Assembly: GCA_021787985.1 (NCBI GenBank)
Contig: JAJYLG010000008.1
Coordinates: 2,821 to 66,820, forward strand
Source: Chloroflexota bacterium
GTDB lineage: Bacteria > Chloroflexota > Dehalococcoidia > DSGV01
Length of the DNA: 64,000 nt
Direction of reading: 5' to 3'
The first letter of the stretch is position 1, and each line of letters starts with the position of its first letter. Of this stretch, positions 2 through 14,492 are shown in pieces. The notes below the pieces were generated by a model, which ran no database searches, had not been told where the DNA came from, and saw only the letters and a list, made by a program, of their open reading frames with translations. The position numbers and the translations under genes are program-made.

Positions 2-646
2 GCGGACCTCAAGTACGTGCGGGAGAAGGGCGACGAGCAGGACTTCTCCTATCTGCAGCCGGAAGGCAGGCAGCCGGACGCGGGATTCGGCACCAGCTTC
101 AAGGAGATCCTGGAGTACATCCACAGCACGATCTCGGAGATCAAGCGGGCCAACAAGCCGTTCATCGCCGCCGTGAAGGGGGTGGCCGCCGCCGGAGGGT
201 TCGGGCTGGCGATGGCGTGCGACCTCGTGTACGCGTCCGACGACGCCGCGTTCGAGTGGGCGTACCGCAAGACCGGCCTGACGGGCGCCGAGAGCTCGAC
301 CTTCTTTCTGCCGCGGCTCGTCGGCCTGCGCAAGGCCATGGAGCTCGTGCTGTTGAACCCCCGACTGACGGCGGCCCAGGCGCTGGAGCTCGGCCTGGTC
401 AACGCGGTCTTCTCTCGCGCGACCTTCGACGCCTCGGTGATGGCGGTAGCCGAGAAGCTGGCCGAGGGACCGACACGCGCGCTGGGCATCGCCAAGACCT
501 TGATCCACTCGGCGGTGGCCGGTGACCGCCTCGACTACCACCTGGACTTGGAGCTGGAGCACCTGGCCCGCATCGCGGAGACGAGGGAGTTCGCCGAGGG
601 GCTCGACGCGTTTCTCGAGAAGCGCGAGCCGAAGTTCGACAGCTAG
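2..646 (+). CDS. Enoyl-CoA hydratase/isomerase (crotonase) family protein, 5' partial; HypX-like Tyr/Glu signature
   Basis: The frame is open from the window edge (ADLKYVREK...). Crotonase motifs IAAVKGVAAAGGFGLAMACD, LPRLVG and C-terminal EGLDAFLEKREPKF are present. Confidence 0.85.
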   Translation, partial: ADLKYVREKGDEQDFSYLQPEGRQPDAGFGTSFKEILEYIHSTISEIKRANKPFIAAVKGVAAAGGFGLAMACDLVYASDDAAFEWAYRKTGLTGAESSTFFLPRLVGLRKAMELVLLNPRLTAAQALELGLVNAVFSRATFDASVMAVAEKLAEGPTRALGIAKTLIHSAVAGDRLDYHLDLELEHLARIAETREFAEGLDAFLEKREPKFDS

Positions 647-692: not shown

Positions 693-1787
693 ATGAAGCC
701 AGTGCGGCACGAGGCCGGGGGAAGCGAAAGCGGCGAGACACGGCAGCGAAGCCGGCTGTTTTTCGGCGACGAGCGAGTATCGATGGCGCACGGCAGCGGT
801 GGCCGGGCGAGCCACACGCTGGTCAACCGGCTCTTCCTCGAGCTCTTCCGCAATCCCCTGCTCGAGAAGCTGGATGACCAGGCCGTGTTCGCGCTGGACG
901 AGGACAGCGGTCCGCGACTCGCCCTCACCACCGATTCGTTCGTGATCCATCCGCTCTTCTTTCCGGGCGGCGACATCGGCAAGCTGGCGGTCCACGGCAC
1001 CATCAACGACCTCGCCATGTCCGGCGCACGTCCGCTGCACCTCTCGGCCGGCTTCATCCTCGAGGAGGGCTTGCCGCTCGGCGACCTGCAGCGCATCGCC
1101 GAGTCGATGGCCGAGGCCTGCGCCCGCTGCGGCGTGGCGATCGTGACCGGCGACACGAAAGTGGTGAACCGCGGCAAGGGCGATGGCGTCTTCATCAACA
1201 CGACGGGGATCGGAATCGTCCCAGATGGCGTGAGCATCTCCGCTTCCAACGCCCGGCCGGGTGACCGGGTGATCGTCAGCGGTCCCATCGGCGAGCACGG
1301 GGTCGCCATCATGATCGCCCGCGGTGGGCTGGACTTCGAGGCGGAGATCGCCAGCGACACGGCCGCGCTGCACTCGCTGGTGGGGACGATGCTCGCGGTG
1401 ACACCTCGCATCCACTGTTTGCGGGACCCGACGCGCGGCGGGGTGGCGACCGTGCTCAACGAGATCGCGGAGCGGTCGGAGGTAGGGATCGTCATCGACG
1501 AGGCCCGCGTCCCGGTCTCCGAGCCGGTCCGCAGCGCGTGCGAGGTGCTGGGCATCGACCCGCTCTACGTCGCCAACGAGGGCAAGCTGGTGGCGGTCGT
1601 GCCGGGCGACGTGGCCGAGGACGTCGTATCCGCCATGCGCCAATGCGATTGTGGGCTGGGACGGGAGGCAACCATCGTGGGTGAGGTGGTGGAAGAGCCG
1701 CGGCGGCGAGTGCTGCTGCGCACCGCGCTGGGGGGAACTCGCATCGTGGACATGCTCGTTGGCGACCCGCTCCCTCGCATCTGCTGA
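693..1787 (+). CDS. hypE: Hydrogenase maturation carbamoyl dehydratase HypE
   Basis: Motifs MAHGSGG, TTDSFVI.PLFFPGGDIGKLAVHGTINDL, GDTKVV and RDPTRGG, plus the diagnostic C-terminal PRIC. Start taken at ATG 693. Confidence 0.95.
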   Translation: MKPVRHEAGGSESGETRQRSRLFFGDERVSMAHGSGGRASHTLVNRLFLELFRNPLLEKLDDQAVFALDEDSGPRLALTTDSFVIHPLFFPGGDIGKLAVHGTINDLAMSGARPLHLSAGFILEEGLPLGDLQRIAESMAEACARCGVAIVTGDTKVVNRGKGDGVFINTTGIGIVPDGVSISASNARPGDRVIVSGPIGEHGVAIMIARGGLDFEAEIASDTAALHSLVGTMLAVTPRIHCLRDPTRGGVATVLNEIAERSEVGIVIDEARVPVSEPVRSACEVLGIDPLYVANEGKLVAVVPGDVAEDVVSAMRQCDCGLGREATIVGEVVEEPRRRVLLRTALGGTRIVDMLVGDPLPRIC

Positions 1788-1803: not shown

Positions 1804-2358
1804 GTGCTCAACGCATGTGGACCAGATGACCCTCGCGAGCCGCGGGTGCTCGTCGCCGGCATGGGGACCGTCCTGCGGAAGGACGACGGGTTCGGCGTGG
1901 CGGTGGTCCGTCACCTGATGGAGACCTGGCGGCCACGTCCCGCGAACGTCACGCTGGTCGACTGCGGGGCGGCTGGGATCAGCCTCGTGCAGGAGCTTCT
2001 GGACGGATACGACGCCCTGATCGTGGTGGACGCGGTGCGGCGCCACGGGCGTCCGGGAACGATCTACGTGCTGGAGCCGCGGGTCCAAGCGCTGATGGAG
2101 CGGGATGATTCCCTGCGCCAAGCGTCTCTCACGGACGCCCATCTGATGGAGCCGGGCCAGGTGTTCGCCGTCGCACACGGTCTGGGTGTGTTGCCGCCGT
2201 ACGTGCGCGTGGTGGGCTGCGAACCGGCCGAGGTCGATGAGGCCGAGATCGGCCTGTCGGCCAGCCTGCAGCACGCGCTCCGCCCGGCGGCGCACCGCGT
2301 CCGCGCGCTGGCGGAGGAGCTGGTCGCGCCGCCGCGGAGCGGTTCGTCCTCGGAGTAG
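1804..2358 (+). CDS. Hydrogenase maturation endopeptidase (HyaD/HybD family)
   Basis: RVLVAGMGTVLRKDDGFG, IVVDAV..G.PGTIY, DAH and VVGCEP motifs. The start (GTG 1804) is uncertain. Confidence 0.85.
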   Translation: MLNACGPDDPREPRVLVAGMGTVLRKDDGFGVAVVRHLMETWRPRPANVTLVDCGAAGISLVQELLDGYDALIVVDAVRRHGRPGTIYVLEPRVQALMERDDSLRQASLTDAHLMEPGQVFAVAHGLGVLPPYVRVVGCEPAEVDEAEIGLSASLQHALRPAAHRVRALAEELVAPPRSGSSSE

Positions 2359-2387
2359 CGCTGCGCGCCGCGACCAAGAACGGGCGG

Positions 2388-2408
2388 CGGCCGGTCACTG
2401 ACCGGCCG
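2388..2408. terminator. Inverted repeat between convergent genes (possible bidirectional terminator)
   Basis: CGGCCGGTCA-C-TGACCGGCCG is a perfect 10-bp inverted repeat. It has no U-tract. Confidence 0.45.
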
Positions 2409-2423
2409 GAGCTGTGGGTGGCG

Positions 2424-2801
2424 CTAACGCCCGAGGTGCGAGGGACAGGGCTCGCCGGCGTGCGCGGGGTCATGGCACCAGCACCCCGGGATGCACTCGC
2501 CGTGCGCCAGCCGGGTCATGTCACGAAAGGTATCTCGGAAGCGCATCGCCCCCTCGCGCTCGCCGCGTTCGGTCAGTCGATAACGCTCGTCCTCGCGTTT
2601 CAGGTCACCCTCTCGGGCGAGGCGGTCCATCTGTGCCTCGACTACGGCGACGTCCCCGGCAAGGAAACCGGCCAGCCCCTGGGCGTTCACCTCGCTGGCA
2701 AGCCCCTCGCCGCGAAGCCAGTACATCGCTTCCAGGATCTCGTCCCGCCAGAACAGGTCGTCGAGCGCGCCGTTGTCGTGCATCCGGCGTTCGCTCCTCA
2801 C
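2424..2801 (-). CDS. Hydrogenase-associated winged-helix-like protein with a C-terminal His/Cys cluster
   Basis: Helical core (FWRDEILEAMYWLRGEG...YRLTERG) and tail HGECIPGCWCHDPAH...CPSH. It overlaps the stop of the upstream protease, consistent with coupling. Confidence 0.7.
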   Translation of the reverse strand: MRSERRMHDNGALDDLFWRDEILEAMYWLRGEGLASEVNAQGLAGFLAGDVAVVEAQMDRLAREGDLKREDERYRLTERGEREGAMRFRDTFRDMTRLAHGECIPGCWCHDPAHAGEPCPSHLGR

Positions 2802-3424
2802 GGAAGGGGCGCGCCGGCGCGGGCGCGCTCAACCAGATCGCGCACGACGATCTGCGCGCGTTGCAGCGCCGCCTCGGCCGCCCGGCTGAGATCCGGACCC
2901 CAGTGCTGATCGGAGGGCTGTACCTCGACCGTCAGGGTGCGCCGCGGGAGCGCGTCGAAATGGTCGAGGATCATCAGGAGGTTCTCGAGGCTCACGACGC
3001 CGGTGACCGCCTCGCCGATACGCCGCTGTAGCTCGTCCGCCGATGGACGCCTCCCCCGCCACGGAGCAACAGTCACCGTGCCGGGTTCGAGGCCCCGGTC
3101 GACCGCGGCGAGGAATACCCCCACGCTGAAGCGGGCGACAGCCTGCAACTGGAACAGGACGTCGATCGGGCCGTAGCTCAGGTCTGCCACGACCACCTCT
3201 GGAGGCCAGTCAAGCCGCTGCAAGCGCTCGATCAGCAATGGGCCCGCGGACATGTCACGCAGATTCGTGTAACCCACTCCGCCCACCAGCACTCGCCGCC
3301 CGTCCCCGCCGGAAGAGTCGGTCGCTGGCGGCAGCGAAGACACGTCCGGTGCGAGCGGCTCGCCCGGGCTGAGGATGGCCGCGAGCGGGTTGAAGGTGCG
3401 CTCGATACGTCCGGCGGAGGGCAT
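2798..3424 (-). CDS. Divergent hydrogenase maturation protease-like protein
   Basis: RVLVGGVGYTNLRDMSAGP, DLSYGPID and VEVQP are HyaD-like. ATG 3424 lies 4 nt after the large-subunit stop. Confidence 0.75.
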   Translation of the reverse strand: MPSAGRIERTFNPLAAILSPGEPLAPDVSSLPPATDSSGGDGRRVLVGGVGYTNLRDMSAGPLLIERLQRLDWPPEVVVADLSYGPIDVLFQLQAVARFSVGVFLAAVDRGLEPGTVTVAPWRGRRPSADELQRRIGEAVTGVVSLENLLMILDHFDALPRRTLTVEVQPSDQHWGPDLSRAAEAALQRAQIVVRDLVERARAGAPLP

Positions 3425-3428
3425 GTCC

Positions 3429-5303
3429 CTATTCTTCCTCCAAGAGGCAGGCGCAGGTGTTGACCTCGCGGACGATCGCCCTATCGCCGGCAAAGACGTG
3501 GGTGGTGCAGGGCATGCACGGGTCGAAGCTGCGGATGGCACGCAGGATGTCGATCCCCTTGAAATCCTCCTGGCGGTCGAACCGCTCGATGACCGGCGTG
3601 CTGAGCACCGCTTCCTCGTAGGGTCCCGGATTCCCCCAGGGGTCCCGCGGCGAGGCGTTCAGGGTGGACGGGGTGATGATCTGGTAGTTGGTCACCACTC
3701 CCTTGTCCATGACGAGATGGTGGGTGAGGTAGCCGCGGCCGGCGCCCCAGAATCCGGCGCCGAGCCGCTGGTCGTTGGGCACGCGGTAGTCACGGCTTAC
3801 GGCAACGTCGCCGCGCTTCATCAGATCGTACGCCGCCATGAGGTTGCTGAGCGCCACCAGTGCCGTGTAGGCCACGGCGTACGCCCGCGCGCGGTTGCGC
3901 TCGATGGCATTCCACTCGTCCGGGATGTGCCACTCGAGCTCCGTCTCCGGCAGCCTGCCCTTCGGCACGACCATCTTGAGACTGTGGCCGGTGGACTCGA
4001 TGAACGGGTTCGCCGGCAGTTTCTGAGCCGCGGCCGTGGTCCACATCCGCACGTACACGCCGGCCTCCACCGCCACCCGGTCCCAGCGCGGCGCCGTGTC
4101 CCAGGTGTACTTCTCCTTCCAGCTCCGGCCGACGGGCTTCGGTCGTGTCTCCTTGTTCCACGGATGGAACGGGCTGAGCGGGTATCCGGCGGGATCCGTC
4201 GGGAATTTCTGCCCGCTCCAGTCTTCGTAATAGGAGTGCTCGACGAACTCCTCGAGGCCCGCGTTCATGGCGTGAAGGTTCGTCGTGACCAGCTCGCCGT
4301 CGCGCACGACGCCGGGGGTGTTCCATCGTCGCTCACCCCACTGGGCCGCGTGTTCGTAGACCGCGTCGTATGCCTCGTGGTGGTCCCAGATCCCGGCGTC
4401 GATCAGGTTCTTCGGTCGTGCGCCCACCTGGCGAAAGCGCGGCTCGACCGCGTAGAGGAAGTCGTACACGTCGTCCCACAGGGGCGCGACCTTCTTGGCG
4501 TAGTCGAGGATGTCGAACAGGCGGGACTGGTACTCGTTGAAGACGCGAAACGATATTGTCGTGCTGATGCCGCCGGGCACGATCGTCTGGGGGTGTGGGT
4601 ACTTGCCCCACACCAGCACCGTCATCTCCCGGGCCTTACGCGTGATCTCGAGCGCTTCCAGGTATAGGGAGCCGCTCAGCGGGTTGAGCGCCGCCATGAT
4701 GTCACCGATCGTGCCGAATCCGTGCACGGCGGCGTGCGGCGCGGCGGTGTGCTCGGCGCGCTCCCAGATCTCGGGGTTAGTGGCGCGAATCGCGGACTCG
4801 GAGTAGTCCGGTCCGCCGAGCAGGAAGAGGTGCAACGGGTTGTCGTAGAGGAACTCGGCCGTCTGCCCGAGATTGCGCACGACGATGCCCATCGGCGGCG
4901 GCTGCACACCGAAGGCCATCTCGATCGCCTCTGCCGAGCAGTTGGCGTGGACCCCACCGCAGACGCCGCACGCGCGGCTGCTGATGAAGATCGCGTCCCG
5001 CGGATCGCGCCCCTTGAGGATGACCTCGTAGCCGCGGAATAGGGTCGCCATCGCGTGCGCGTCGAGCACACGGCCCTCGTTCAGGTCGACGACCGCGTGG
5101 AACGCCAGGGCGCCGGCCACGCGCGTCACCGGGTCGATGCTCACCTCCTGGATGTGGCCGTTGCGGCGCAGCAACTCCTCGATGCGTTCCTGCTGGGTCG
5201 CCACCGTTGTCGTCGCGCGAACTCCATATGGGTCGGCGACGTTGGCCTTGAGGCGTGCTCTGCCGGACTCGTCGAACTCAATCGGCAGGTTCTTGAAGCA
5301 CAT
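3429..5303 (-). CDS. hylL: [NiFe]-hydrogenase large subunit, group 1 (probably 1l/Hyl)
   Basis: L1 motif SRACGVCGGVH, L2 motif DPCMPCTTH followed by a cleavable C-terminal extension, and a GGAGGAG RBS. The subgroup and symbol are inferred from gene architecture. Confidence 0.9.
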   Translation of the reverse strand: MCFKNLPIEFDESGRARLKANVADPYGVRATTTVATQQERIEELLRRNGHIQEVSIDPVTRVAGALAFHAVVDLNEGRVLDAHAMATLFRGYEVILKGRDPRDAIFISSRACGVCGGVHANCSAEAIEMAFGVQPPPMGIVVRNLGQTAEFLYDNPLHLFLLGGPDYSESAIRATNPEIWERAEHTAAPHAAVHGFGTIGDIMAALNPLSGSLYLEALEITRKAREMTVLVWGKYPHPQTIVPGGISTTISFRVFNEYQSRLFDILDYAKKVAPLWDDVYDFLYAVEPRFRQVGARPKNLIDAGIWDHHEAYDAVYEHAAQWGERRWNTPGVVRDGELVTTNLHAMNAGLEEFVEHSYYEDWSGQKFPTDPAGYPLSPFHPWNKETRPKPVGRSWKEKYTWDTAPRWDRVAVEAGVYVRMWTTAAAQKLPANPFIESTGHSLKMVVPKGRLPETELEWHIPDEWNAIERNRARAYAVAYTALVALSNLMAAYDLMKRGDVAVSRDYRVPNDQRLGAGFWGAGRGYLTHHLVMDKGVVTNYQIITPSTLNASPRDPWGNPGPYEEAVLSTPVIERFDRQEDFKGIDILRAIRSFDPCMPCTTHVFAGDRAIVREVNTCACLLEEE

Positions 5304-5327
5304 GGCGTCTCCTCCCCGTGTCCCGCG

Positions 5328-5621
5328 CTAGGGGGCTGTTCGCCCGGGCGCACCAGGCGGCAAGCGGTTGTTCAGCGACCGCAGGTTGGCAGTCAGGCCG
5401 TCGGCGCCCGTCGCGAGCGCTTCCAAGCCGCGCCGGAGCGGCGGCACCTGCCCCTCGAGGAGAGCGGTCTGACGGTCGATAGCCGCGACCCCCCAGACGA
5501 TCTTCGCGGCGGTAAGGCGGATGCGCTCCAGGGAGCGCCGTATCCGGTTCAGGGCCAGCGCCAGCAGCGCGAGGAAGAGAAGGAGGAGCACGGCCGAGAG
5601 GATCGCCAGGATCACCGTCAT
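5328..5621 (-). CDS. Single-pass membrane protein with coiled-coil tail (HylTM-like #4)
   Basis: N-terminal hydrophobic helix (VILAILSAVLLLLFLALLALAL), amphipathic tail and RBS AGGTGG. The ATG overlaps the upstream stop. Confidence 0.75.
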   Translation of the reverse strand: MTVILAILSAVLLLLFLALLALALNRIRRSLERIRLTAAKIVWGVAAIDRQTALLEGQVPPLRRGLEALATGADGLTANLRSLNNRLPPGAPGRTAP

Positions 5622-5923
5622 CTTGTCCCACCTTCGTTCACCAGGCCCGCGGTTCTCAGCCTCGCGCCCAGGTCGACGGCGACCTGCGCGATTCCGTCCG
5701 CCCCGACGCCGAGCCGCTGGGCGGTGCTCGCCAGGGGGCCGAGCTCCGGGAGCGCGGCCGAGTTGCGGCCGATGCCCTCAATTGAACGGAGCGCCGTTCG
5801 AGCCTGCAGGTCGATGGCTCGCAGGTGCACGACGATTCGGGTCACCATCAGCACCGCCACCAGCGTCAGCGGGAGCGCGGCCAGCAGCGCCACGAGCCAG
5901 ACAATCGCCGCCGTTAGGTTCAT
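5618..5923 (-). CDS. Single-pass membrane protein (HylTM-like #3)
   Basis: N-terminal TM helix, L..I...A...L.SI.GI..N pattern and RBS GAGGAG. Confidence 0.75.
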   Translation of the reverse strand: MNLTAAIVWLVALLAALPLTLVAVLMVTRIVVHLRAIDLQARTALRSIEGIGRNSAALPELGPLASTAQRLGVGADGIAQVAVDLGARLRTAGLVNEGGTR

Positions 5924-5933
5924 ATGCCGCTCC

Positions 5934-6230
5934 TCACGCTGCCGCCGAGCGGCTGCTGCCGGCGGCGTCCGGCTCGCCGCCGAGATCTCCGGACGTGGCC
6001 TCGAGGTCGGAGGCTACGCGACCGAGGGCCGCGTTCACCTGCCCGAGCTGCTCGTTGAGAGGCCGCGTCACATCTTCGACCACCGCCATCAGGCGCGAGA
6101 TCCGGACGAACGAGTCGCCTACCCTGCGCAGGTAGACGAGGATCGTCACCAGGCTGACCGCAAGCACGAGCGCGACAACGACCGCGTACACGAGCGAGAT
6201 GATCTGGACTACGAGGATGAACGTGTCCAC
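5934..6230 (-). CDS. Single-pass membrane protein (HylTM-like #2)
   Basis: GTG start after GGAGG, a TM helix, then LRRVGDSF.RISRLM.VVEDVTRPL...LGQVN. Confidence 0.75.
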   Translation of the reverse strand: MDTFILVVQIISLVYAVVVALVLAVSLVTILVYLRRVGDSFVRISRLMAVVEDVTRPLNEQLGQVNAALGRVASDLEATSGDLGGEPDAAGSSRSAAA

Positions 6231-6242
6231 AGCATCCTCCGG

Positions 6243-6539
6243 CTAGGACGGTCCCGGCCGCTGTGCCGCCAGCTTGTCATCGAGGGCGGCGGTCGCCGCG
6301 GCGATGGCAACCACCGCGGCGAGAATGCGGCCCGCGGTCTGATTCGTCTGCGCAAGGAGTGGGATGCTGGTCGTGTTCGACGCGATGCCCTTGCCAGCCT
6401 GCCACACCTCGAGGGCGTGGCGATCGATTCGCTCGGCCGCGCGCCAGATCGCGATCAGCAGCACGGCAACGACCAGCAGCACGACGACCGCGATGATGAG
6501 GATGATCCACCAGAACTGCGGGATGGTAGCGTCGGGCAT
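6243..6539 (-). CDS. Single-pass membrane protein (HylTM-like #1)
   Basis: RBS AGGAGG, TM helix FWWIILIIAVVVLLVVAVLLIAI, then RI...A.EVW..GKGIASNT. Confidence 0.75.
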   Translation of the reverse strand: MPDATIPQFWWIILIIAVVVLLVVAVLLIAIWRAAERIDRHALEVWQAGKGIASNTTSIPLLAQTNQTAGRILAAVVAIAAATAALDDKLAAQRPGPS

Positions 6540-6588
6540 GTGGGATTCCTCCTCCTCCCGTCCCGACCGTTCGCTCGCGCGAACGGTC

Positions 6589-7830
6589 CTACTCCGGCTT
6601 GGCGGCCGTGCCGTGACGCTGGCGCCGGTTGTAGAGGAACTCCAGCGTCCGGTCCACCACGGGCAGCTCGTACTCGGCGCCCCAGCCGCTGGGGATGCGC
6701 TTCTCCCGGTCCCAGCGGGTCGAGTGATTGCGGTCTCGCTGGGTCACTCTGCGAAGCGCGCGCACCAGCGCCCCGCCGGTCTTCGAGATGCTGCTGGACA
6801 CGAGGACGCCCGGTGCAGCCTTGTAGAAGGGCGCGAACTTGTCCGGGAAGCCCGGCATGGTGCAGCCGATGCAGACGCCCCCCGCGTGCATGCAGCCGCC
6901 GACGCCGTTGATGGCGCCTCGTGAGGTGATGTTGCAGTTCACCACGGGGCCCCAGCAGCCGATCTCGACCAGGCACTCGCGGTCGCCGGGGGAGTCGGCG
7001 AAGGTGCCCTCCTCGTAGTAGCCCGCGCGATTGCACTGGCGGTGGACCGTCTCGCTGAAGAGCCAGGCTGGTCGTCCCAGCTCGTCGAACTCCGGCACCG
7101 GTCCGAGGCCCTGCAAGAACAGCAGCACGGCGGCGACCGTCTCCGTGAAGTTGTCTCCGACCGGCGCGCAGCCCGGGATGTTGACGACCGGCAGGCCGAG
7201 CGCGCTGCGATACTCGGGTCCCAAGAAGTCCATCACACCCATCGCGCCCGTGGGATTGTGGTAGGCGGCGGGGATGCCGCCCCACGTGGCGCAGGTGCCG
7301 ATGGCGATGACCGCCGCCGCGCCCGGGGCCATGCGCTTGAGCCACGTCGCCGACGGCACGGCGCGGGCTTCACCTCGTGCCTCGTCGAGCTCCTCGCCCA
7401 CCGCCGACCAGTAGCCCTCACCGGCTCGCGCCTCGTCGGCAACCGAACCCTCGTAGACGACTACATAGGGGACGCCCAGCGTGCCTTCCGCCGCGCTGCG
7501 TGCGGCCCGCATGAACGGCTCGCCTGCCTCGACGTTGATCGCCGTGTGATGGAGGAAAACCTGCGGCAGCCCCGGCAACGTGCCCAGCAGCAGGTCCTCG
7601 ACGCGCGGCGCGGTCGCCCCGAGGACCGCGATGCTGCATCCGTCGCAGCTCATCCCCGCCAGCCAGAAAACGTGGACGGCGGTGTACGGACCGAGCAGGC
7701 TATCCTTGCCAAGCCGCTCCCGCGCCTGCCGCGCGATCTCCTCGGTGGTCGCGCCGGCAATGTTGCCGACCATCCCCATGCCGCGGCCCGGTGCGACCCC
7801 GACGGACGGTTTCTCCGTGGTCACCATCAC
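6589..7830 (-). CDS. hylS: [NiFe]-hydrogenase small subunit without a Tat signal
   Basis: Fe-S ligand motifs SCDGCS, GTCATWGG, PGCAP, HRQC, CL..IGC.GP..NC and GGC...GGVCIGC..PGFPD. RBS GAGGAGG. No RRxFLK motif. Confidence 0.9.
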   Translation of the reverse strand: MMVTTEKPSVGVAPGRGMGMVGNIAGATTEEIARQARERLGKDSLLGPYTAVHVFWLAGMSCDGCSIAVLGATAPRVEDLLLGTLPGLPQVFLHHTAINVEAGEPFMRAARSAAEGTLGVPYVVVYEGSVADEARAGEGYWSAVGEELDEARGEARAVPSATWLKRMAPGAAAVIAIGTCATWGGIPAAYHNPTGAMGVMDFLGPEYRSALGLPVVNIPGCAPVGDNFTETVAAVLLFLQGLGPVPEFDELGRPAWLFSETVHRQCNRAGYYEEGTFADSPGDRECLVEIGCWGPVVNCNITSRGAINGVGGCMHAGGVCIGCTMPGFPDKFAPFYKAAPGVLVSSSISKTGGALVRALRRVTQRDRNHSTRWDREKRIPSGWGAEYELPVVDRTLEFLYNRRQRHGTAAKPE

Positions 7831-7857
7831 CCGTGCTCCTCCTCCCCCCGCCGGCCG

Positions 7858-8643
7858 TCAGCGCGCGACTTCGCGCGTCAGCGTCTCGACCAGCGCGCCG
7901 ATAGCCCGCACCGCCGGCGCCGACGGCCGATAGTCAATCGCCGATCGATTCTCCCGATCGGCATCTTGAACGGACTCATCGAACGGGACCACCCCCGCCA
8001 CCGCCACGCCAAGGCGCTGGCTGTACTCGCGGATGGCGGCCTCGTCCCGTGGCGAACGGACCTTGTTCGCGACCGCGTGAACGCGAGGGAGACCCAGCCC
8101 GCGCGCCAGCGGCACCGTTCGCCCCATCGTCTCCAGCGCTCGGTAGTAGGGCTCCGTCACCACCAGCAGCGTGTCCACGTTGCGCACGGTGCCACGGCTG
8201 AGGTGCTCGATGGACGCTTCCATGTCGAGGATCGTCACCTCGTTGCGCGACGAGGACGGCAGCTCCGCGATCACGCCACGCACCGTGGCGTGCTGTCCGC
8301 ACAGTCAGCCCTTGCCCGCGCCCAGGAGGCCGGTCATAGAGAGCACTCGCATCCCGGCAGGACCGACCACGCCGTACTCCGACACGATCTCGTCGAAGGG
8401 ACGCCGCAGCCGCAGGCTGGCCCGCCCTTCTTCGTCTACCAGCTCGTCGAATATCGCTTCTCGGGGGACGCGGCGCAGCGCGCTGATCTGTTCTGGCGCC
8501 AAGCCGAGGGCCGCCGCCAGATTCGGATTCGGGTCATCGTCGAGGGCGTTGACGCGGTAGCCACGTTCGGCGAACACGCGCGCCATCGTGGCCGCCACCG
8601 TCGTCTTGCCGGCGCCGCCCTTCCCCGCGACGGCGATTCTCAC
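7858..8643 (-). CDS. cooC: CooC/AcsF-type Ni-insertion ATPase with in-frame UGA (predicted selenocysteine, U113-L-C115)
   Basis: The two ORF-track pieces (8305-8745 and 7858-8283) are one reading frame separated only by TGA 8305-8307. Motifs GKGGAGKTT, DDDPNPNL and DMEASIEHLSRGT are present. GTG start at 8643 follows GGGAGG, giving 261 codons. Confidence 0.85.
8272..8307 (-). other. Candidate bacterial SECIS element
   Basis: UGA, then 12 nt, then the perfect hairpin CACGCCACG-GUG-CGUGGCGUG (8272-8292). The apical loop starts with G about 20 nt after the UGA. Confidence 0.65.
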
Positions 8644-8817
8644 GCCCCGCTCTCCCTCCCAGCACGGCGAGCGATCATCGCTCCGGCCATGCGCTGGCGT
8701 GCGAGCGGCTCTCCCTCCGCTCCACCCTTCGCCCGGGTAGTCCACGGCCGCCCCGCACGCTGGGCGGTCAGGCGGCCGATGAGATGGACAACCGGGCGCC
8801 TCCCTCGGGATGCTCGC

Positions 8818-8846
8818 ATGTTAGTGCGGGATTTCCCATATTTCAA
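8818..8846 (-). promoter_or_regulatory. Sigma70-type promoter for the cooC-hydrogenase operon
   Basis: TTGAAA (8841-8846), 17-nt spacer, TAACAT (8818-8823), in a locally AT-richer patch. Confidence 0.6.
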
Positions 8847-8929
8847 GCCAGGGTCGGAGGACCGCCGCCTGCCCGCCGACTCCGGAAGCCGGCGGCGTTG
8901 GCCCGTACTCTCGTGCGGCTCGAAGCGAC

Positions 8930-10615
8930 TCAGCTTGCACCGCGGATTTGCGTTCCCACCGGCTGTCCCGTCACGAAGACTTGCTTGAAGCAGCCGTTCG
9001 TGCCGCTGCCGTACCAGCCATGGGCGAAGTACCAGGCATCCAGCACCGCCGCACGGTAGATCCAGTAGCCCGTCGGATAGTACAGGTCGATCGTGGGCAG
9101 GTCTTGGGCGAGGATGACCTGCATCCGGTCGACGATGGCCTTGCGCGCGGCCTCGTCGATGGTCGAGAGCTGCTGCGCGGCAAGGCTGTCGAACGTCGGA
9201 TTGGCGTAGCCGTGGACCCGGGTGAAGCTCTTGCTCTTGCTGTGACTGTCGAACTTCGCGCGCAGGCCATCGGGGTCGCCTCCCAGCCCGCCGAAGCCGA
9301 CCAGCGCAAGGTCGTAGCGACCCTGGGCCGCCGCGCTGTCGCGCGCTTGCCCGTCCATGACCTGCGGCGTGACCTGGATCCCGGCCGCTTTCAGGTAGGA
9401 CTGGAGCAGCTCGGCAACACGGATCGGATCGCTGTTGGCCAGGATCAGTGGGAAGCGCAGCGGGGTGCCCGTCGCGGTCTCCCGGACTCCATCGTGGTCG
9501 CGGTCGAGATAGCCGGCGTCGTCGAGGAGCCGCTGCGCCTTTGCCGTATCGAATGGGTACTGTGGCACCCGGGGGTTATGCCAGGGGCTGGTCGGCGCGA
9601 CCTGGCCGGGATTCCCGACCACCCCCTGGCCCTGGAGGAAGCGCGCGACCAGGTCGTCCAAGTTCAACGCGTAGCCGACCGCCTGCCGGAATCGGACGTC
9701 GGCCAGCGGACCGCCCTTCGCCATGTTGAAGAACAGCGCGAACGTCCATTCCAATGGCGAGCTGATTGTCTTGAATCTGTTGTCTCGCTTAAACGAATCG
9801 AGGACGCCCGGCGGGGCCGCCTGGTTGAACCCGAGGCCGCCGGCGTCGATCCCACCCTGCTGCAGCGCCAGCAGCTCGTTGGGGGCGGGCACCTGTTCGA
9901 TCCGCCGCACGTAGGGACGGCCGAGGAAGAAGCTATCGTTCGCTTCGAACAGATAGCTGCCCTGTGCTTCGTTGTACTGCTGCAGGCGATATGGCCCGGT
10001 TCCGACCGTGGCGCTCGGTGCGTCGAACTTGGTCGGGTCACTGACCGGTTCCCAGACGTGCCTGGGCAGGATGAACACCGACGTGGCGATCGACGGGATC
10101 AACGGCGCGTAGGGCTCCTTGAGGCGCAATCGGATCGAGGTCTCCGTCACCTTCTCGGCACCCGCGACCACCTGCAGGCTAGACGCCCACCATGGGGTCG
10201 GGTGCGCAGCCAGGTACTCGAAGGTGAAAACCACGTCGTCGGCCGTGAACGGTTGGCCGTCCTGCCACTTCACATCCGGGCGGAGGCTGAAGGTCCAGGC
10301 GCGCCCTCCCTGCTCCGGCGCCCAACTGGTCGCGAGCCACGGTATGACTCCGCGCGAGTCGTGCCACGCGAGGGTGTCGAAGACGTAGCTCGTGTTCACG
10401 TGTCCCGGACCGCGCGAGAACATGAACGGCGTGGGTCGCCCGTAGTCCCCGCCCGCCAGTCGCACTGTCGGCCGAGGGGCGGCCGTCGCGGTCGCGGTCA
10501 CGGCCTGCTGTGCCCCGCCGCTGCACGCATTGAGCAGCCAGGGGGCGGCGGCGACGATCCCGCCGGCGCCGGCCGCCCGCAACAATGCTCGCCTGGTCAG
10601 ACCTCGACTCGCCAT
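8930..10615 (-). CDS. ABC transporter substrate-binding protein, family 5 (Opp/Dpp/Nik), Tat lipoprotein
   Basis: TRRALL twin-arginine motif, lipobox LNAC, and LRPDVKWQDGQPFTADDVVFTF and VGTGPY family 5 motifs. Confidence 0.88.
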   Translation of the reverse strand: MASRGLTRRALLRAAGAGGIVAAAPWLLNACSGGAQQAVTATATAAPRPTVRLAGGDYGRPTPFMFSRGPGHVNTSYVFDTLAWHDSRGVIPWLATSWAPEQGGRAWTFSLRPDVKWQDGQPFTADDVVFTFEYLAAHPTPWWASSLQVVAGAEKVTETSIRLRLKEPYAPLIPSIATSVFILPRHVWEPVSDPTKFDAPSATVGTGPYRLQQYNEAQGSYLFEANDSFFLGRPYVRRIEQVPAPNELLALQQGGIDAGGLGFNQAAPPGVLDSFKRDNRFKTISSPLEWTFALFFNMAKGGPLADVRFRQAVGYALNLDDLVARFLQGQGVVGNPGQVAPTSPWHNPRVPQYPFDTAKAQRLLDDAGYLDRDHDGVRETATGTPLRFPLILANSDPIRVAELLQSYLKAAGIQVTPQVMDGQARDSAAAQGRYDLALVGFGGLGGDPDGLRAKFDSHSKSKSFTRVHGYANPTFDSLAAQQLSTIDEAARKAIVDRMQVILAQDLPTIDLYYPTGYWIYRAAVLDAWYFAHGWYGSGTNGCFKQVFVTGQPVGTQIRGAS

Positions 10616-10697
10616 GCCCCCTCGCCTCCGATCGCTCTTCCCATCGCGGAACCAGTCCGTCCGGCTCGATGCCCGAGCCGCCGGCGGATTCGCGCGC

Positions 10698-12620
10698 CTA
10701 CTCTTCCGCCGCCGCACCCGCCTGGATCTCGCGCCCCGAACCGGGCGGCTTCCAAGCAGGCAAACGGTCGTCCGCCGCCTCAGCCTCGACTGTCTCTGGG
10801 GCCGCGCGACCGTTCGCGCGCAACGCTTGGGACCTGGCGCCGGCAGCCGCGACGAGCAGCCGCCGCGTGTAGGGATGCCGCGGCTCGCTCACCACTTGCT
10901 CCGAGGGCCCGGCCTCCACGATCCGTCCGTGCTCCATGACGATCACGCGGTCGGCGACTTTACGGACCAGGGGTAGGTCGTGGGAGACGAGCAGGAGCGC
11001 GGTGCCGTGGTCGTTCTGGAGGTCCTTGAGCAGGCGCAACACGCGGGCTTGCTCGCTCGGGTCGAGCATCGAGGTCGGTTCGTCCGCCACGATGACCTTG
11101 GGGCGTACGACCAGGGCCCGCGCGATGGCAATGCGCTGCAACTGACCGCCTGACAGCTCGTGCACGCGCTTGGCCAGGAACTCCCGCGTCGTGGGCAGCC
11201 GGGCGGCGGCCAGCGCTGCCCGCGCCGTCTCGTCTCGTTCCGCGCGGTTCCCGATCCGCTGGATGTCGAGCGGCTCCCGCACCAGCTCGAGCGCAGTGAG
11301 GCGTGGGCTCAACGCCTCGTACGGGTCCTGGAAGATGAACTGCAGGAGTCGGCGCGCGGCTCTGCGCGCCTCCCCTCTCAGCGAATGGAGCGGCTGGCCC
11401 TGCAACTGCACGTCGCCCCGGTCCGGTTCGAGGAGGCCCACGATCATCCTGGCGAGCGTGGTCTTCCCGCTTCCCGTCTGGCCAACGACCGCGACCACCT
11501 CGCCCTCGCCCAGATGGAGGCTCGCGTCCTGCACGGCCTGCACCGGTGGGCCCGGGCCGTCGCGGAACGTCTTGCTGAGTCGCCGCGCCTCCAGCAGCAG
11601 GCGAAGACCGCCCAGGTGGCAGGCAACCAGCCGGTCGAGCTGGGGCATGAGCGCCGGGATCTCGGCCTGGCAGCGATCGATGGTTTGCGTGCAGCGCGGC
11701 GCGAACGCACAACCGGAAGGAGGGCACATGGGGTCGGGCGCTTCGCCGCGGATTCCCCAGAGGTCCTTCGAGCGCGTCATGGTGGGGTAGGCGTTGACCA
11801 GACCCCAGGTGTACGGATGGCGCGGGCTTTCGATCACGTCGTGAGCCTCGCCGACCTCCACTGCCCGTCCCGCGTAGAGCACGAGCGCGCGCTGCGCCAG
11901 TTGGCGCACGTCGTCGGGGTTGTGGGAGATCACCAGCATCGCGAGGTCGTGCTCCGCGTGCAGCCGCCGCAGAAGGTCGAGGATCGCCACGCGGGTAAAG
12001 GAGTCGAGGCCGCTGGTCGGCTCGTCGAGGATGAGAAGCGCCGGGGCGCCGGCGAGGGCCATCGCCAGCATGGCGCGCCTCTTCTCGCCTCCGCTGAGCT
12101 GATGGGGATAGTGGCCGAAGCGCTGGGCTGGCAGGCCGACCTCATCCCACGCGCGGAGCGCGCGCTCGCGAGCCGCGTCGCGGCGCAGACCGCGCCGCTC
12201 TTGGAGTGGCTCGATCAACTGGTCGCCTACCCGCTGTACCGGATCGAAGCCAGTGCCGCTCGCCTGCGCGACCAGCGCGATCTGCGACCAGCGGAATCGG
12301 TTCATGGCGCGGTCGTCGCGGAGCGGCAGTGGCGTCCCGCCGAATTCGACGACTCCCTCAACCTCCGCCGTGGGCACGAGGCCCAGCAGGGCAAGCGCCA
12401 GCGTGGTCTTGCCTGAACCCGATTCGCCGATGACTCCAAGGGTGTCGCCACGGCCGAGCTCGAACGTGACCCCGCGGAGCGCCGGGAGCATGAGGTCATT
12501 CGGCAGGCGGTAGCGCACGCTCAGCTCGCGAACCGCGAGCAACGACCGGTGCGCGACGGCGCCGTCCGTCGAGGGTCGCTCAGGCCCGCGTTTGCAGTCG
12601 GTCGACTCGTGCGTTTCCAT
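10698..12620 (-). CDS. Fused dual-domain ABC ATPase (OppD/OppF-like)
   Basis: Two Walker A motifs (GESGSGKT, GQTGSGKT), two LSGG signatures and a PSGC.F.PRC...ACH Cys motif. The start is uncertain. Confidence 0.88.
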   Translation of the reverse strand: METHESTDCKRGPERPSTDGAVAHRSLLAVRELSVRYRLPNDLMLPALRGVTFELGRGDTLGVIGESGSGKTTLALALLGLVPTAEVEGVVEFGGTPLPLRDDRAMNRFRWSQIALVAQASGTGFDPVQRVGDQLIEPLQERRGLRRDAARERALRAWDEVGLPAQRFGHYPHQLSGGEKRRAMLAMALAGAPALLILDEPTSGLDSFTRVAILDLLRRLHAEHDLAMLVISHNPDDVRQLAQRALVLYAGRAVEVGEAHDVIESPRHPYTWGLVNAYPTMTRSKDLWGIRGEAPDPMCPPSGCAFAPRCTQTIDRCQAEIPALMPQLDRLVACHLGGLRLLLEARRLSKTFRDGPGPPVQAVQDASLHLGEGEVVAVVGQTGSGKTTLARMIVGLLEPDRGDVQLQGQPLHSLRGEARRAARRLLQFIFQDPYEALSPRLTALELVREPLDIQRIGNRAERDETARAALAAARLPTTREFLAKRVHELSGGQLQRIAIARALVVRPKVIVADEPTSMLDPSEQARVLRLLKDLQNDHGTALLLVSHDLPLVRKVADRVIVMEHGRIVEAGPSEQVVSEPRHPYTRRLLVAAAGARSQALRANGRAAPETVEAEAADDRLPAWKPPGSGREIQAGAAAEE

Positions 12621-13464
12621 AGCGCTCCAGCGCGGTGCCCCACAGCGTGAACCCCACGACGAGCAGCGAGATGCAGGCTCCGGCGGGGAGGGCCCACCAC
12701 AACCAATAAGGCGTGAGGTAGATCCCGTCGAAGTTCAGCGCTGCACGGAGGACCCCTCCCCAGCTCTTGAGGGTCGGGTCGCCCAGGCCGAGAAAAGCCA
12801 GCCCGGCCTCCATCATCACGGCCCGTCCGGCCAGCGACACGAACGCGGCCGCGGCGACGGGCGTGACCGCCGGCAGCAGGTGGCGGCGCATCAGGTAGAA
12901 GTGGCTGCCTCCCAACAGGCGCGCGGACTTGACGTGAGCGCGCTCGCGCAAGGTCAGGACCTGGGCGCGGATCACCCGTGCGGGCCCGGCCCACATTACC
13001 AGCACGACCACCAGGATCACGCTGTTGAGCCCCGGCCCGAGAAAGGCGGCCAGGACGATCATCAGCGGAAGGTGCGGCACGGCCATGAAGACGTCCACGA
13101 CGCGCATCAGCAACGCGTCGAACCAACCGCCGACGGTCGCCGCGCTAACGCCGACGAGCAGCGCGAGCGCCAGGCTCAAGCCGGCTCCCAGGAGTGCGAC
13201 CGTCAAGGAGACGCGAGCGCCATAGATGAGCTCGCTCAGGATGTCCTGGCCGACATCGTTCGTGCCGAGCAGATACGCGCCGGTCGGGCGCAGCAGTGGC
13301 GCGGCGACGTACGCGGTCGGATGGTACGGCGCGACCAGTGGCGCGAGGACGGCCGTGGCCGCGAACCCGGCCACGATGCCGGCACCCAGCCACGCCGCGC
13401 TCAGGCGCAGCCGTCGTCGGGAGACGAGGGCGGGGCGTGGCAGCGGCGTCGCGAGGGAGCTCAT
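12580..13464 (-). CDS. ABC permease (OppC/DppC/NikC-like)
   Basis: LLGTNDVGQDILSELIYGARVSL, EAA-loop region and LAFLGLGDP...SWG. Confidence 0.9.
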   Translation of the reverse strand: MSSLATPLPRPALVSRRRLRLSAAWLGAGIVAGFAATAVLAPLVAPYHPTAYVAAPLLRPTGAYLLGTNDVGQDILSELIYGARVSLTVALLGAGLSLALALLVGVSAATVGGWFDALLMRVVDVFMAVPHLPLMIVLAAFLGPGLNSVILVVVLVMWAGPARVIRAQVLTLRERAHVKSARLLGGSHFYLMRRHLLPAVTPVAAAAFVSLAGRAVMMEAGLAFLGLGDPTLKSWGGVLRAALNFDGIYLTPYWLWWALPAGACISLLVVGFTLWGTALERYGNARVDRLQTRA

Positions 13465-14492
13465 CGGGTCCTCACGCGCGGGTCAAGCCGGGCATAGGCC
13501 AGGTCGGCGATCAAGTTGGCGGTGAGCACCGACACCGTGAAGACGAGGAAGACTCCCTGCAGCACGGGATAGTCCCGAGCGGAGACCGCCTGAAACGCCA
13601 GCGTGCCCATGCCGGGATAGGCGAACACCGCTTCGACGAAGATGGAGCCGGTCACGGCGAAACCGAGCTGGATCGAGAGCACGGTGACGAAGGGGAGCAG
13701 CGCGTTGCGCAAGGCATGACGGTACTTCAGGCTGCGGTCGGACAATCCTTTTGCCTTGGCCACGAGCATGAAATCGTCGCCCAGCACGGAGATGACGCTG
13801 TTGCGCATCAAGAGGAACTGGCCGCCCAGCATCTCGATCGTCAAGACCAGCGCCGGCAACGCCCAGTGGTGGAGCAGGTCGGCCAGCGCGCCCCACGGTG
13901 AGCGGTAGTGGGCGAACGGCGTCTGGGCGCCGGCGAGCGGGAACCAGCCGAGCCGGACGCTGAACAGCAGCAAGGCGAGCACGCCGAGGAAGAAAGCCGG
14001 GAGGGTCCGAATGCCGGCGAAGAGGACGATCAGGCCGCGGTCCAGCGGCGAGCCGCGATGCCAACCGGCGTGCAGGCCGGCGACCATGCTGACCAGTGAC
14101 GCCGCGAGCATGGCCGGGAAGATGAGCAGGACGGTCCAGAGGATGCGGTGCTGGATGAGCAGGCTCACGGGCGCATTCAGGCGAATGGACCAGCCGAGGT
14201 CCCCCGTGGCCAGGCCACGGAGGTACCTCCCGTATTGCACGATCAGCGACTGATCGAGCCCATAGTAGTGCGAGAGCGCGGCGCGGCTGGCCTGATCGCT
14301 GACGTAGAGGCTGCTCTCCGGGTCCTGCAACGCCGTGATCGGGTCTCCCGGCATCATCCGTGGCAAGGCGAAGTTCAGCGTGATGACGGCGAACAGCGTC
14401 AGCACGAAGGCCGCGCAGCGTCCGGCCAACCAGCGGGGAGGGCCGGTACGCTGCCACCGCATCCGTCGTGCCGCCCGTGCCACGGCTAGCAT
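13461..14492 (-). CDS. ABC permease (OppB/DppB/NikB-like)
   Basis: RMMPGDP, GLDQSLIVQYGRYL..L..GDLGWS, AKAKGLS and RDYPVLQG. Confidence 0.9.
   Translation of the reverse strand: MLAVARAARRMRWQRTGPPRWLAGRCAAFVLTLFAVITLNFALPRMMPGDPITALQDPESSLYVSDQASRAALSHYYGLDQSLIVQYGRYLRGLATGDLGWSIRLNAPVSLLIQHRILWTVLLIFPAMLAASLVSMVAGLHAGWHRGSPLDRGLIVLFAGIRTLPAFFLGVLALLLFSVRLGWFPLAGAQTPFAHYRSPWGALADLLHHWALPALVLTIEMLGGQFLLMRNSVISVLGDDFMLVAKAKGLSDRSLKYRHALRNALLPFVTVLSIQLGFAVTGSIFVEAVFAYPGMGTLAFQAVSARDYPVLQGVFLVFTVSVLTANLIADLAYARLDPRVRTR

Follow-up and report, generated by a model that had tools for sequence, protein, structure and literature searches.

A further intact group 1l-type [NiFe]-hydrogenase gene cluster in a Chloroflexota bacterium

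Which kind of hydrogenase is encoded at positions 2424-8846 of this 64,000-nt stretch of Chloroflexota DNA (hereafter the window), and what may the enzyme do? A sequence-only reading had seen here a complete operon of a group 1l-like enzyme, read from one promoter-like site, as a candidate for trace H2 oxidation. The locus is an intact cluster of a group 1l-type hydrogenase, an O2-tolerant, H2-oxidizing type that is published but biochemically uncharacterized. It adds one more member to a very abundant family and is not a new kind, even if part of the accessory genes is unusual. All genes that had been named (cooC, small subunit, four TM genes, large subunit, protease and wHTH gene) are present where they had been placed, on the minus strand. 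The relevant features are:

8846..8818, minus strand: promoter-like site, TTGAAA-17 nt-TAACAT, sigma-70-like
8643..7858, minus strand: CooC-like ATPase, 261 codons with an in-frame TGA; P-loop ATPase match in Pfam/NCBIfam
8272..8292, minus strand: SECIS-like hairpin in the CooC-like gene, with covariation among orthologs
7830..6589, minus strand: HylS small subunit, 413 aa; PF14720, PF01058
6539..6243, 6230..5934, 5923..5618 and 5621..5328, minus strand: four HylTM-type genes, 98, 98, 101 and 97 aa
5303..3429, minus strand: HylL large subunit, 624 aa; PF00374 at 246 bits
3424..2798, minus strand: protease-like gene, 208 aa; TIGR00072 at 47.7 bits
2801..2424, minus strand: wHTH gene, 125 aa, shortened to 119 aa if the ATG at 2783 is the start
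1804..2358, plus strand: canonical HupD/HybD-type maturation endopeptidase, TIGR00072 at 107 bits; convergent with the operon
783..1787, plus strand: HypE, near the right end of a hypF-hypC-hypD-crotonase-hypE-hupD string

The operon genes are close-packed between 8643 and 2424 with intergenic gaps of -4 to 49 nt, and all nine open reading frames are intact and translationally coupled. In this respect the operon is complete, but the sole protease with intact metal ligands lies beyond 2424-8846, on the opposite strand beside hypE. This canonical endopeptidase has D, D and H ligands in 60 out of 60 orthologs and is adjoined by hypF, hypC, hypD and hypE, in a gene string that starts left of the window; hypA and hypB were not seen. 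The promoter-like site, which lies around 175 nt ahead of the start codon of the CooC-like gene, is indeed the sole one in 2200..9100, although it is weak evidence for a promoter as 0.5 such sites are expected by chance in that interval. The operon sequence could be traced to only one sequencing run, a mine-drainage DNA metagenome. Synteny of all nine operon genes is kept across phyla. The CooC-like ATPase, the protease-like protein, the wHTH protein and the second protease recur beside the hydrogenase in nearly all of 80 related loci from at least seven phyla. The accessory set had been called unusually rich, a description that does not hold: the locus is poorer than usual, with four TM genes in place of five, no tri-Cys TM protein and no HylE.

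The class of the enzyme is given by its large subunit. In three trees HylL falls in a 1l-like clade with an SH-aLRT support of 98, with 100/98, and with 100/99 once wider representatives are included. This clade comprises at least 80 species, including Antarctic MAG sequences classed as group 1l by Ortiz et al. The group 1l anchor consists of the Mackay Glacier genes L020, L064 and L071, assigned to 1l by elimination as far as Tables S7/S5 of Ortiz et al. indicate; the type sequence, HylL of Hymenobacter roseosalivarius (SMB94678), stands outside the trees, so that 1l is anchored via Antarctic MAG genes alone. Five group 1h references and one 1h-like representative form their own 100/100 clade, apart from that of HylL. 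HylL shares 83% identity with its counterpart in a Thermomicrobiaceae MAG; seven genes of Mackay Glacier MAGs reach 61-66%, compared to 41-45% for group 1h (41-43% for plasmid-borne group 1h genes). The four Ni-Fe cysteines are kept (C112/C115 in RACGVCGGVH, C596/C599 in DPCMPCTTH602), and a tail of 22 aa, ending ...REVNTCAC..., follows His602. A place of the predicted enzyme in the group 1l-type clade, and not in 1h, 1c, 1d or 2a, is thus supported, and the assignment draws on the 100/99 trees, on the CDGC motif, on the TM genes set between those of the subunits, and on the missing Tat signal and cytochrome b.

The sequence-only reading of the small subunit is largely borne out. Its proximal motif is C62-D-G-C65, while four group 1h enzymes have CDGD at that position. 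The twin-arginine motif is absent from HylS in an alignment where Escherichia coli HybO shows RRDFMK, and a Pfam/NCBIfam search of the locus found no cytochrome b family. HylS retains 11 Cys and one His, sufficient for three clusters, with four Cys at the proximal site. A Cys had also been proposed in place of the Pro of the medial site. The extra Cys itself stands, as the one in GVGGC is aligned to the additional Cys of the medial cluster in HofK (PDB 5AA5) and in [NiFeSe] small subunits, but its position is approximate: in the alignment with HybO a 2-residue indel intervenes, and the Cys precedes the W-P of the 3Fe site by two residues. The C-terminal extension, of 1l type and around 30 aa long, keeps the conserved first segment (PSGWG...FxY) and misses the distal 35-45 aa of most clade members.

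Between hylS and hylL, 1286 bp accommodate the four HylTM-type genes. Each of the four proteins has one N-terminal TM helix and no Cys, and they occur in the order A-B-A-B. The number of interposed TM genes within the 1l-like clade is five, four, two or zero, depending on the locus. Loci with five such genes have a tri-Cys HylTM to which TMa is orthologous, though TMa is without the CPGCPxC tail. HylE, found in 68 of the 80 related loci, gives no tblastn match in the 64-kb window (top profile-HMM match: E 0.016); it is also missing from L090 and from L003, the latter a member of the same 11-member subclade as the window. With neither HylE nor a Cys-bearing TM protein, the electron exit route proposed below has no obvious cofactor carrier.

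The gene that had been read as cooC does encode a CooC-type ATPase (E 5e-30 against CooC1, PDB 3KJE), even if the protein scores below the cutoff of every NCBIfam model, but its frame is broken at codon 113 by a TGA (8307..8305). In the alignment with CooC1 the TGA falls where the CxC metal motif has its first Cys. At this position orthologs have TGA (n = 42) or TGC/TGT (n = 13) and never TAA or TAG, and the frame is conserved downstream; an independent Logan contig is identical across the TGA stretch. A hairpin starts 12 nt 3' of the UGA (stem CACGCCAC / GUGGCGUG, loop GGUGC). It has at least five contiguous pairs in 43 out of 43 TGA genes and at most three in 13 out of 13 Cys genes. Pairs 24-34, 25-33 and 21-37 covary, and the covariation exceeds that of 500 out of 500 shuffles and of every slid register. 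No Rfam family matches this hairpin, and the 64-kb window contains no tRNA-Sec. Based on the exchange of TGA and Cys codons among orthologs and the covarying hairpin, the TGA probably encodes selenocysteine, which would give a U-x-C metal site.

The protease of the operon is a homolog in degenerate form. Its TIGR00072 score is right at the cutoff, the HybD ligands E16, D62 and H93 are replaced by M, A and T/G, and none of 76 orthologs keeps even one of the metal ligands. This ligand-less homolog is probably a non-catalytic assembly factor. The wHTH fold, named earlier, is confirmed by an AlphaFold model (pLDDT 85.5) with MntR/IdeR/MarR as best compact matches, and the C-terminal motif H-x-E-C-x-P-x-C-x-C is invariant.

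Taken together, the locus very likely encodes a cytoplasm-facing, membrane-associated, O2-tolerant H2-uptake [NiFe]-hydrogenase of group 1l (Hyl), in a Chloroflexota-type sublineage. HylSL would oxidize H2 in the cytoplasm and pass the electrons along three [4Fe-4S] clusters. The four HylTM proteins may anchor the distal-cluster end to the membrane, from where, with no cytochrome b involved, electrons would enter the quinone pool and the aerobic respiratory chain. Maturation is expected to proceed via the hypCDEF genes of the convergent strand, with the canonical protease HupD removing the 22-aa HylL tail after His602. The CooC-type ATPase, its metal site read as Sec-x-Cys, would supply nickel, and the ligand-less protease homolog and the wHTH/Cys-His protein may act as chaperone and metal-responsive regulator, respectively. 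A high affinity for H2 is a candidate property of the enzyme. This scheme has its counterpart in the published group 1l model (10.1101/2020.08.06.239558, Supplementary Note 1; PMC13554262).

Two alternatives concern the class. A group 1h (Hhy/Hof-type) high-affinity hydrogenase mislabelled as 1l would fit the by far top solved-structure match to 5AA5 (511 bits, compared to at most 166 for all other solved structures), and both groups are without a Tat signal and with an extra medial-cluster Cys. Against the separate 100/100 clade of the 1h references at 41-45% identity, the CDGC motif, the subunit genes that lie apart, and the absence of DUF5947 and DUF6084 from the window and the 80 loci, we give such a mislabelling hardly any chance. 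The other alternative is that the Chloroflexota subclade of the window constitutes a separate sister subgroup of 1l, or the 'group 1m' of Ray et al. 2022. In two trees this subclade is sister to all other sampled clade members and not nested among them, and in the tree with wider representatives the unlabelled lineages P0126 and P0130 are placed between 1l and 1h. Moreover, a tri-Cys TM protein, a fifth TM gene and a long HylS tail are lacking, the window and L003 are without HylE, and 1m clusters also hold a CooC-type ATPase, a BirA-like (wHTH) gene and small TM proteins (PMC9561532). Nonetheless, only a short branch (0.07-0.14, compared to at least 0.45 to any other lineage) splits the subclade off, and the whole 1l-like clade is a single cluster at 50% identity; the top representative reaches 923 bits, followed by one at 560 bits. 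All 80 clade members, but not 1h, have MCFKNLPIEFD at the N-terminus and the TCAC tail. Group 1m, known from Actinobacteriota only, is defined by the adjacency of its subunit genes, whereas in the window four TM genes split them. A separate subgroup, or 1m, is improbable, and membership of group 1l itself remains the preferred reading.

The other two alternatives concern function. The in-frame stop in cooC, the loss of E16, D62 and H93 in the protease-like gene and the missing hylE could be loss-of-function lesions of a decaying cluster. This is very improbable, given that 42 orthologs from several phyla share the TGA, with no TAA or TAG at this site in any ortholog and with a covarying hairpin downstream of the TGA, that the ligand-less protease is conserved in 76 out of 76 orthologs, and that the nine frames are intact and coupled. 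More weight, albeit clearly the lesser share, goes to a true group 1l enzyme that does not scavenge trace H2, be it due to a lower affinity, condition-specific expression, or growth on local H2 in mine-drainage sediments. The evidence on H2 uptake by group 1l is mixed. No affinity value exists for any purified group 1l enzyme, the group is termed 'uncharacterized' and 'implicated in mixotrophic growth' (PMC13554262), and R. biformata and M. algicola carry group 1l and took up no H2 in three weeks (PMC10305171); the sample is also a mine-drainage metagenome and not an oligotrophic desert soil. On the contrary, for H. roseosalivarius, which has the same enzyme type, oxidation of atmospheric H2 is reported to have been validated by experiment (PMC13554262), soil H2 uptake is tracked by group 1l abundance in the cited studies, and the closest solved relative is O2-insensitive.

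For the accessory ATPase, the known counterpart is CooC1 of Carboxydothermus hydrogenoformans (PDB 3KJE/3KJG/3KJH/3KJI), a Ni-binding ATPase of CO dehydrogenase maturation. Over 220 aligned residues both proteins have the P-loop GKGGxGKT and a metal motif at the same position. At the first position of CxC, however, CooC1 has Cys where the window has UGA, and the gene of the window accompanies a hydrogenase and not a CO dehydrogenase. Similar accessory genes surround the group 1m hydrogenase hhmSL of Actinobacteriota MAGs, which comes with a CooC-type ATPase, a BirA-like wHTH protein, a HybD peptidase, an FeS-assembly protein and small single-TM proteins and has 5AA5 as best modelling template (PMC9561532). 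Its subunit genes are adjacent and known from Actinobacteriota only, and it is this published description that sets the window apart, as the trees contain no hhmL.

The best solved-structure relative is the group 1h enzyme HofKG/HhySL of Cupriavidus necator H16 (PDB 5AA5), with 44% identity in the large and 49% in the small subunit. Like the predicted enzyme of the window it is cytoplasmic, has the extra medial Cys (three [4Fe-4S] clusters) and belongs to the O2-insensitive uptake type. Group 1h differs in the Asp ligand of CDGD and in its gene order, with adjacent subunit genes followed by NifU/HhyE, DUF5947 and DUF6084 and without TM genes; NifU, too, was not found at the locus of the window. 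HylL further differs from group 1h by MCFKNLPIEFD at the N-terminus and by the TCAC tail, neither of which occurs in 1h.

The closest system is the published group 1l of Hymenobacter roseosalivarius and Antarctic MAGs, arranged as HylS-HylTM1-5-HylL-HylE-HupD (10.1101/2020.08.06.239558; PMC13554262). It comprises five TM genes compared to four in the window, a tri-Cys tail on a TM protein, an extension of HylS relative to group 1h of around 100 aa instead of around 30 aa, and HylE in the cluster, while the window represents a Chloroflexota-type sister sublineage from mine drainage. Yet both share the four-Cys proximal cluster, the lack of a Tat signal and of a cytochrome b, single-pass TM genes between the subunit genes, a CbiA/CooC-type gene, a wHTH (PadR-like) gene nearby and a HupD protease, and HylL of the window belongs to the same clade as the group 1l MAG sequences of Ortiz et al.

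Nine closely spaced genes, all on the minus strand, follow a single sigma-70-like site at 8846..8818 (one such site found versus 0.5 expected by chance). Their subunits, TM genes and ATPase were located much as the sequence-only reading had seen them.

Genes of the hydrogenase operon
8643..7858, minus strand, CooC-type ATPase
7830..6589, minus strand, HylS (small subunit)
6539..5328, minus strand, four ORFs of 97-101 amino acids, each having a single TM helix at its N-terminus and no Cys
5303..3429, minus strand, HylL (large subunit)
3424..2798, minus strand, endopeptidase-like gene with its true start at ATG 3424
2801..2424, minus strand, winged-helix (wHTH) gene

Pfam and NCBIfam confirm the hydrogenase subunits and the P-loop ATPase, and neither returns a cytochrome b family match among the operon genes. 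The Ni-Fe ligands of HylL are intact (C112 and C115 in RACGVCGGVH; C596, C599 and H602 in DPCMPCTTH, after which a 22-amino-acid tail follows). HylS lacks a twin-arginine motif, carries C62-D-G-C65 and contains 11 Cys and one His. The G+C content of the operon region is 66-72%. The sole public run that contains the window sequence is a mine-drainage metagenome, and a Logan contig, an independent assembly of this run, is identical to the window across 7800..8900, including the in-frame TGA described below.

Among solved structures, the enzyme is closest to 5AA5, the group 1h hydrogenase HofKG of C. necator (511 bits versus at most 166 for every other), with 44% identity for the large and 49% for the small subunit. 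HylL shares 41-43% identity with plasmid-borne group 1h genes; the plasmid search returned 1h, 1d, 1c and 2a references and none of group 1l. With one genome scanned per species, at least 570 relatives emerged, of which the best 80 (59-83% identity) were taken for locus comparison. They stem from Chloroflexota, Acidobacteriota, Gemmatimonadota, Actinomycetota, Armatimonadota, Methylomirabilota and other phyla. With 2a, 1d and 1c references as outgroups, the window falls within the clade of these 80 relatives in three trees (SH-aLRT 98; 100/98; and 100/99 with wider representatives, at 50% identity, included), while five group 1h references group apart from it in a clade supported at 100/100. 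Together with an identity of 41-45% and a different operon layout, this led us to reject a group 1h identity. In the representative library, the whole window clade is a single cluster, with 923 bits for the best representative and 560 bits (at most 45% identity) for the next. A sister family of large-subunit-like proteins at 41-45% identity (P0122, P0128 and P0131), some with FKNLPIE-like N-termini, has lost the Ni-Fe cysteines (e.g., RSSGPGSGAH for RxCGxCxxxH) and ends in ...IRSFD; by their sequences, these proteins look like non-catalytic paralogs.

The name of the clade is anchored by elimination. Seven of its members are genes of Mackay Glacier MAGs, and all group 1 hydrogenases of those MAGs are either 1h or 1l, with the group 1h genes of the Acidobacteriota MAGs given in Table S7 (Ortiz et al., 10.1101/2020.08.06.239558). 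The contigs of three related loci (L020, L064 and L071) are missing from the group 1h genes in that table, yet their MAGs are counted as hydrogenase-positive; these loci are therefore group 1l. Anchored in this way, through Antarctic MAG genes, the assignment of HylL to group 1l, as proposed from sequence alone, is supported. Group 1m is set apart by description only: its subunit genes are adjacent by definition (Ray et al. 2022, PMC9561532), while those of the window are not. A homologous-protein search found relatives in at least 2625 clusters at 90% identity, the matches listed all having at least 62% identity. The locus is a further member of a known, very abundant family.

Within the clade, the window belongs to a subclade of 11 Chloroflexota members that includes the remaining four-TM loci and is sister to all other members sampled. 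Outside this subclade, five, two or no TM genes are interposed, which makes the layout labile within the clade. The four genes of the window occur in the order A-B-A-B. Of these, TMa is orthologous to the protein that bears CPGCPxC in five-gene loci, but this tail is missing from TMa. The HylS C-terminal extension (approximately 30 amino acids) keeps the first conserved segment and misses the distal 35-45 amino acids. Two Acidobacteriota-rich subclades have adjacent subunit genes, with the TM genes upstream between cooC and hylS (L017, L030, L031, L045, L050, L064, L038, L047, L052, L058, L061, L067, L068 and L079). This layout resembles the published description of group 1m, although it is nested in the 1l-like clade.

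The cooC-like gene is to be annotated as a single reading frame, not as two fragments, with a TGA at codon 113 (8305-8307). This codon aligns with the first Cys in the CxC by which CooC1 (3KJE) binds Ni. At the same site, orthologs carry TGA (42) or TGC/TGT (13) and never another stop codon. A hairpin lies 12 nt 3' of the TGA (8272-8292); it has at least five contiguous pairs in 43/43 TGA genes and at most three in 13/13 Cys genes, and its pairing partners covary at synonymous third positions. The position-specific stem alone separates the two sorts of genes, whereas the minimum free energy of the whole region fails to do so in this GC-rich DNA. An in-frame TGA, Cys orthologs and a covarying hairpin form the computational signature typical of selenoproteins, and from its sequence the CooC-type ATPase is probably one. 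None of the SECIS families in Rfam matches the hairpin, no NCBIfam model scores above its cutoff for the ATPase, and a whole-word literature search brought up no account of a CooC with Sec. In a Chloroflexota MAG (L077, 11824-12558), a second CooC-like paralog carries two in-frame TGA codons followed by a palindromic hairpin. Its G-U-P-U-C-G, compared with G-C-P-C-C-G in the L024 paralog, may represent a double-selenocysteine motif.

The accessory set had been called unusually rich, but it is a normal one: tblastn against the 80 loci places CooC-like, protease-like, wHTH and second-protease genes beside the hydrogenase in nearly every sufficiently long locus. The gene 3' of hylL had been labelled as the protease and does score at the TIGR00072 cutoff. 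Its product, however, has M, A and T/G where E16, D62 and H93 of HybD (structure numbering) stand, residues that we take to be the metal ligands, and all three are lost in each of its 76 orthologs, which makes it a conserved pseudo-protease. The other protease, encoded on the plus strand at 1804..2358, has D, D and H ligands in 60/60 orthologs. This amends the annotation: the gene 3' of hylL is not the active protease. The wHTH protein has a confident predicted fold (pLDDT 85.5) that superposes best on MntR/IdeR/DtxR and MarR DNA-binding domains, with weak E-values of 4e-3 to 3e-2, and ends in an invariant H-x-E-C-x-P-x-C-x-C motif.

HypCDEF and hupD genes adjoin the operon: to its left, on the contig that continues the window, the order is hypF, hypC, hypD, crotonase, hypE and hupD, convergent with the operon. 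Neither hypA nor hypB turned up in the window or the 80 loci. The crotonase is a stand-alone ECH_1 gene (window 2-646; 6655-7485 on the continuing contig L090), and its place between hypD and hypE recurred in none of the 80 loci. An Opp/Dpp/Nik-type ABC importer (8930-14492; SBP_bac_5, a fused double ATPase and two permeases) lies on the same strand as cooC and ends 287 bp upstream of it. It is a putative nickel supplier, and 18 of the 80 loci have comparable SBP genes at 28-39% identity. Neither the crotonase nor the SBP_bac_5 transporter is a conserved neighbor in these loci, and both were rejected as parts of the system.

The cleavable extension of hydrogenase large subunits is normally unconserved. 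In HylL it holds a CxC (...REVNTCAC..., 3429-3494), which, like the N-terminal MCFKNLPIEFD (5271-5303), is present in 80/80 clade members compared, the best 80 of at least 570. One tentative and, in our estimate, rather unlikely proposal is that group 1l delivers nickel without HypA/HypB. The CooC-type ATPase would provide a predicted Sec-x-Cys metal site, the invariant Cys-x-Cys of the HylL tail would take part, and the ligand-less endopeptidase homolog would hold this tail rather than cut it. The three parts are clade-specific and all visible at the window locus. If true, a very abundant soil H2-oxidizing enzyme would need selenium for its assembly. The interest of the locus lies chiefly in these conserved, under-described maturation genes.

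Among the H2-uptake hydrogenases of Antarctic desert soils, group 1l reportedly dominates, and to our knowledge no member has been purified to date. At the window locus, the catalytic core is intact and has ligands for three clusters, the enzyme's location is cytoplasmic, and four single-pass membrane proteins are co-encoded. Judging from group 1h biochemistry and the AlphaFold model published for group 1l, an (HylSL)2 core would be tethered by the HylTM helices and pass electrons to quinone and then to O2. As HylE is missing and no TM protein bears a Cys, a carrier from the distal cluster to quinone is not evident in the four-TM sublineage; under the tentative proposal above, this HylE-less, Cys-free sublineage would also need an electron exit unlike that of the published model. 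For high H2 affinity, as proposed from sequence alone, the enzyme is a candidate. One group 1l isolate is reported as an atmospheric H2 oxidizer (PMC13554262), and two isolates encoding group 1l consumed no H2 (PMC10305171).

Set against the published feature list of group 1l (Ortiz et al., 10.1101/2020.08.06.239558, Supplementary Note 1), the window shares the four-Cys proximal site, the lack of a Tat signal, the TM genes between the subunits and the associated HupD protease. It has four TM genes instead of five and, unlike the published cluster, no HylE. This NifU plus Rieske-like protein occurs in 68 of the 80 related loci (e.g., L001, 10914-11819; L036, 10469-11425), where its first Rieske motif is without the usual His (ACPG/ACGE). 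It is absent from the whole 64-kb window, from the Logan contig extending it and also beside the related locus L003. That the operon is complete, as had been stated, is not supported; the canonical protease lies on the other strand. Group 1h operons have adjacent subunit genes and, after them, NifU/HhyE, DUF5947, DUF6084, a hypothetical gene and a protease; none of the 1h-specific accessory genes occurs in the window or the 80 loci, and the large-subunit tails of group 1h (MYVGxGKT...) are without Cys, unlike those of the window clade. By this locus, group 1l can dispense with a fifth TM gene, a tri-Cys tail, a long tail on HylS and a linked HylE, all of them published "hallmarks". The CDGC proximal motif, the MCFKNLPIEFD N-terminus and the TCAC tail are invariant clade-wide, and the CooC-type ATPase, the ligand-less protease homolog and the wHTH/Cys-His protein are constant in nearly every locus. 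Knowing which features are dispensable and which are invariant eases the choice of a minimal gene set for heterologous expression, and to group 1l the locus contributes a compact, Chloroflexota-type version from mine drainage.
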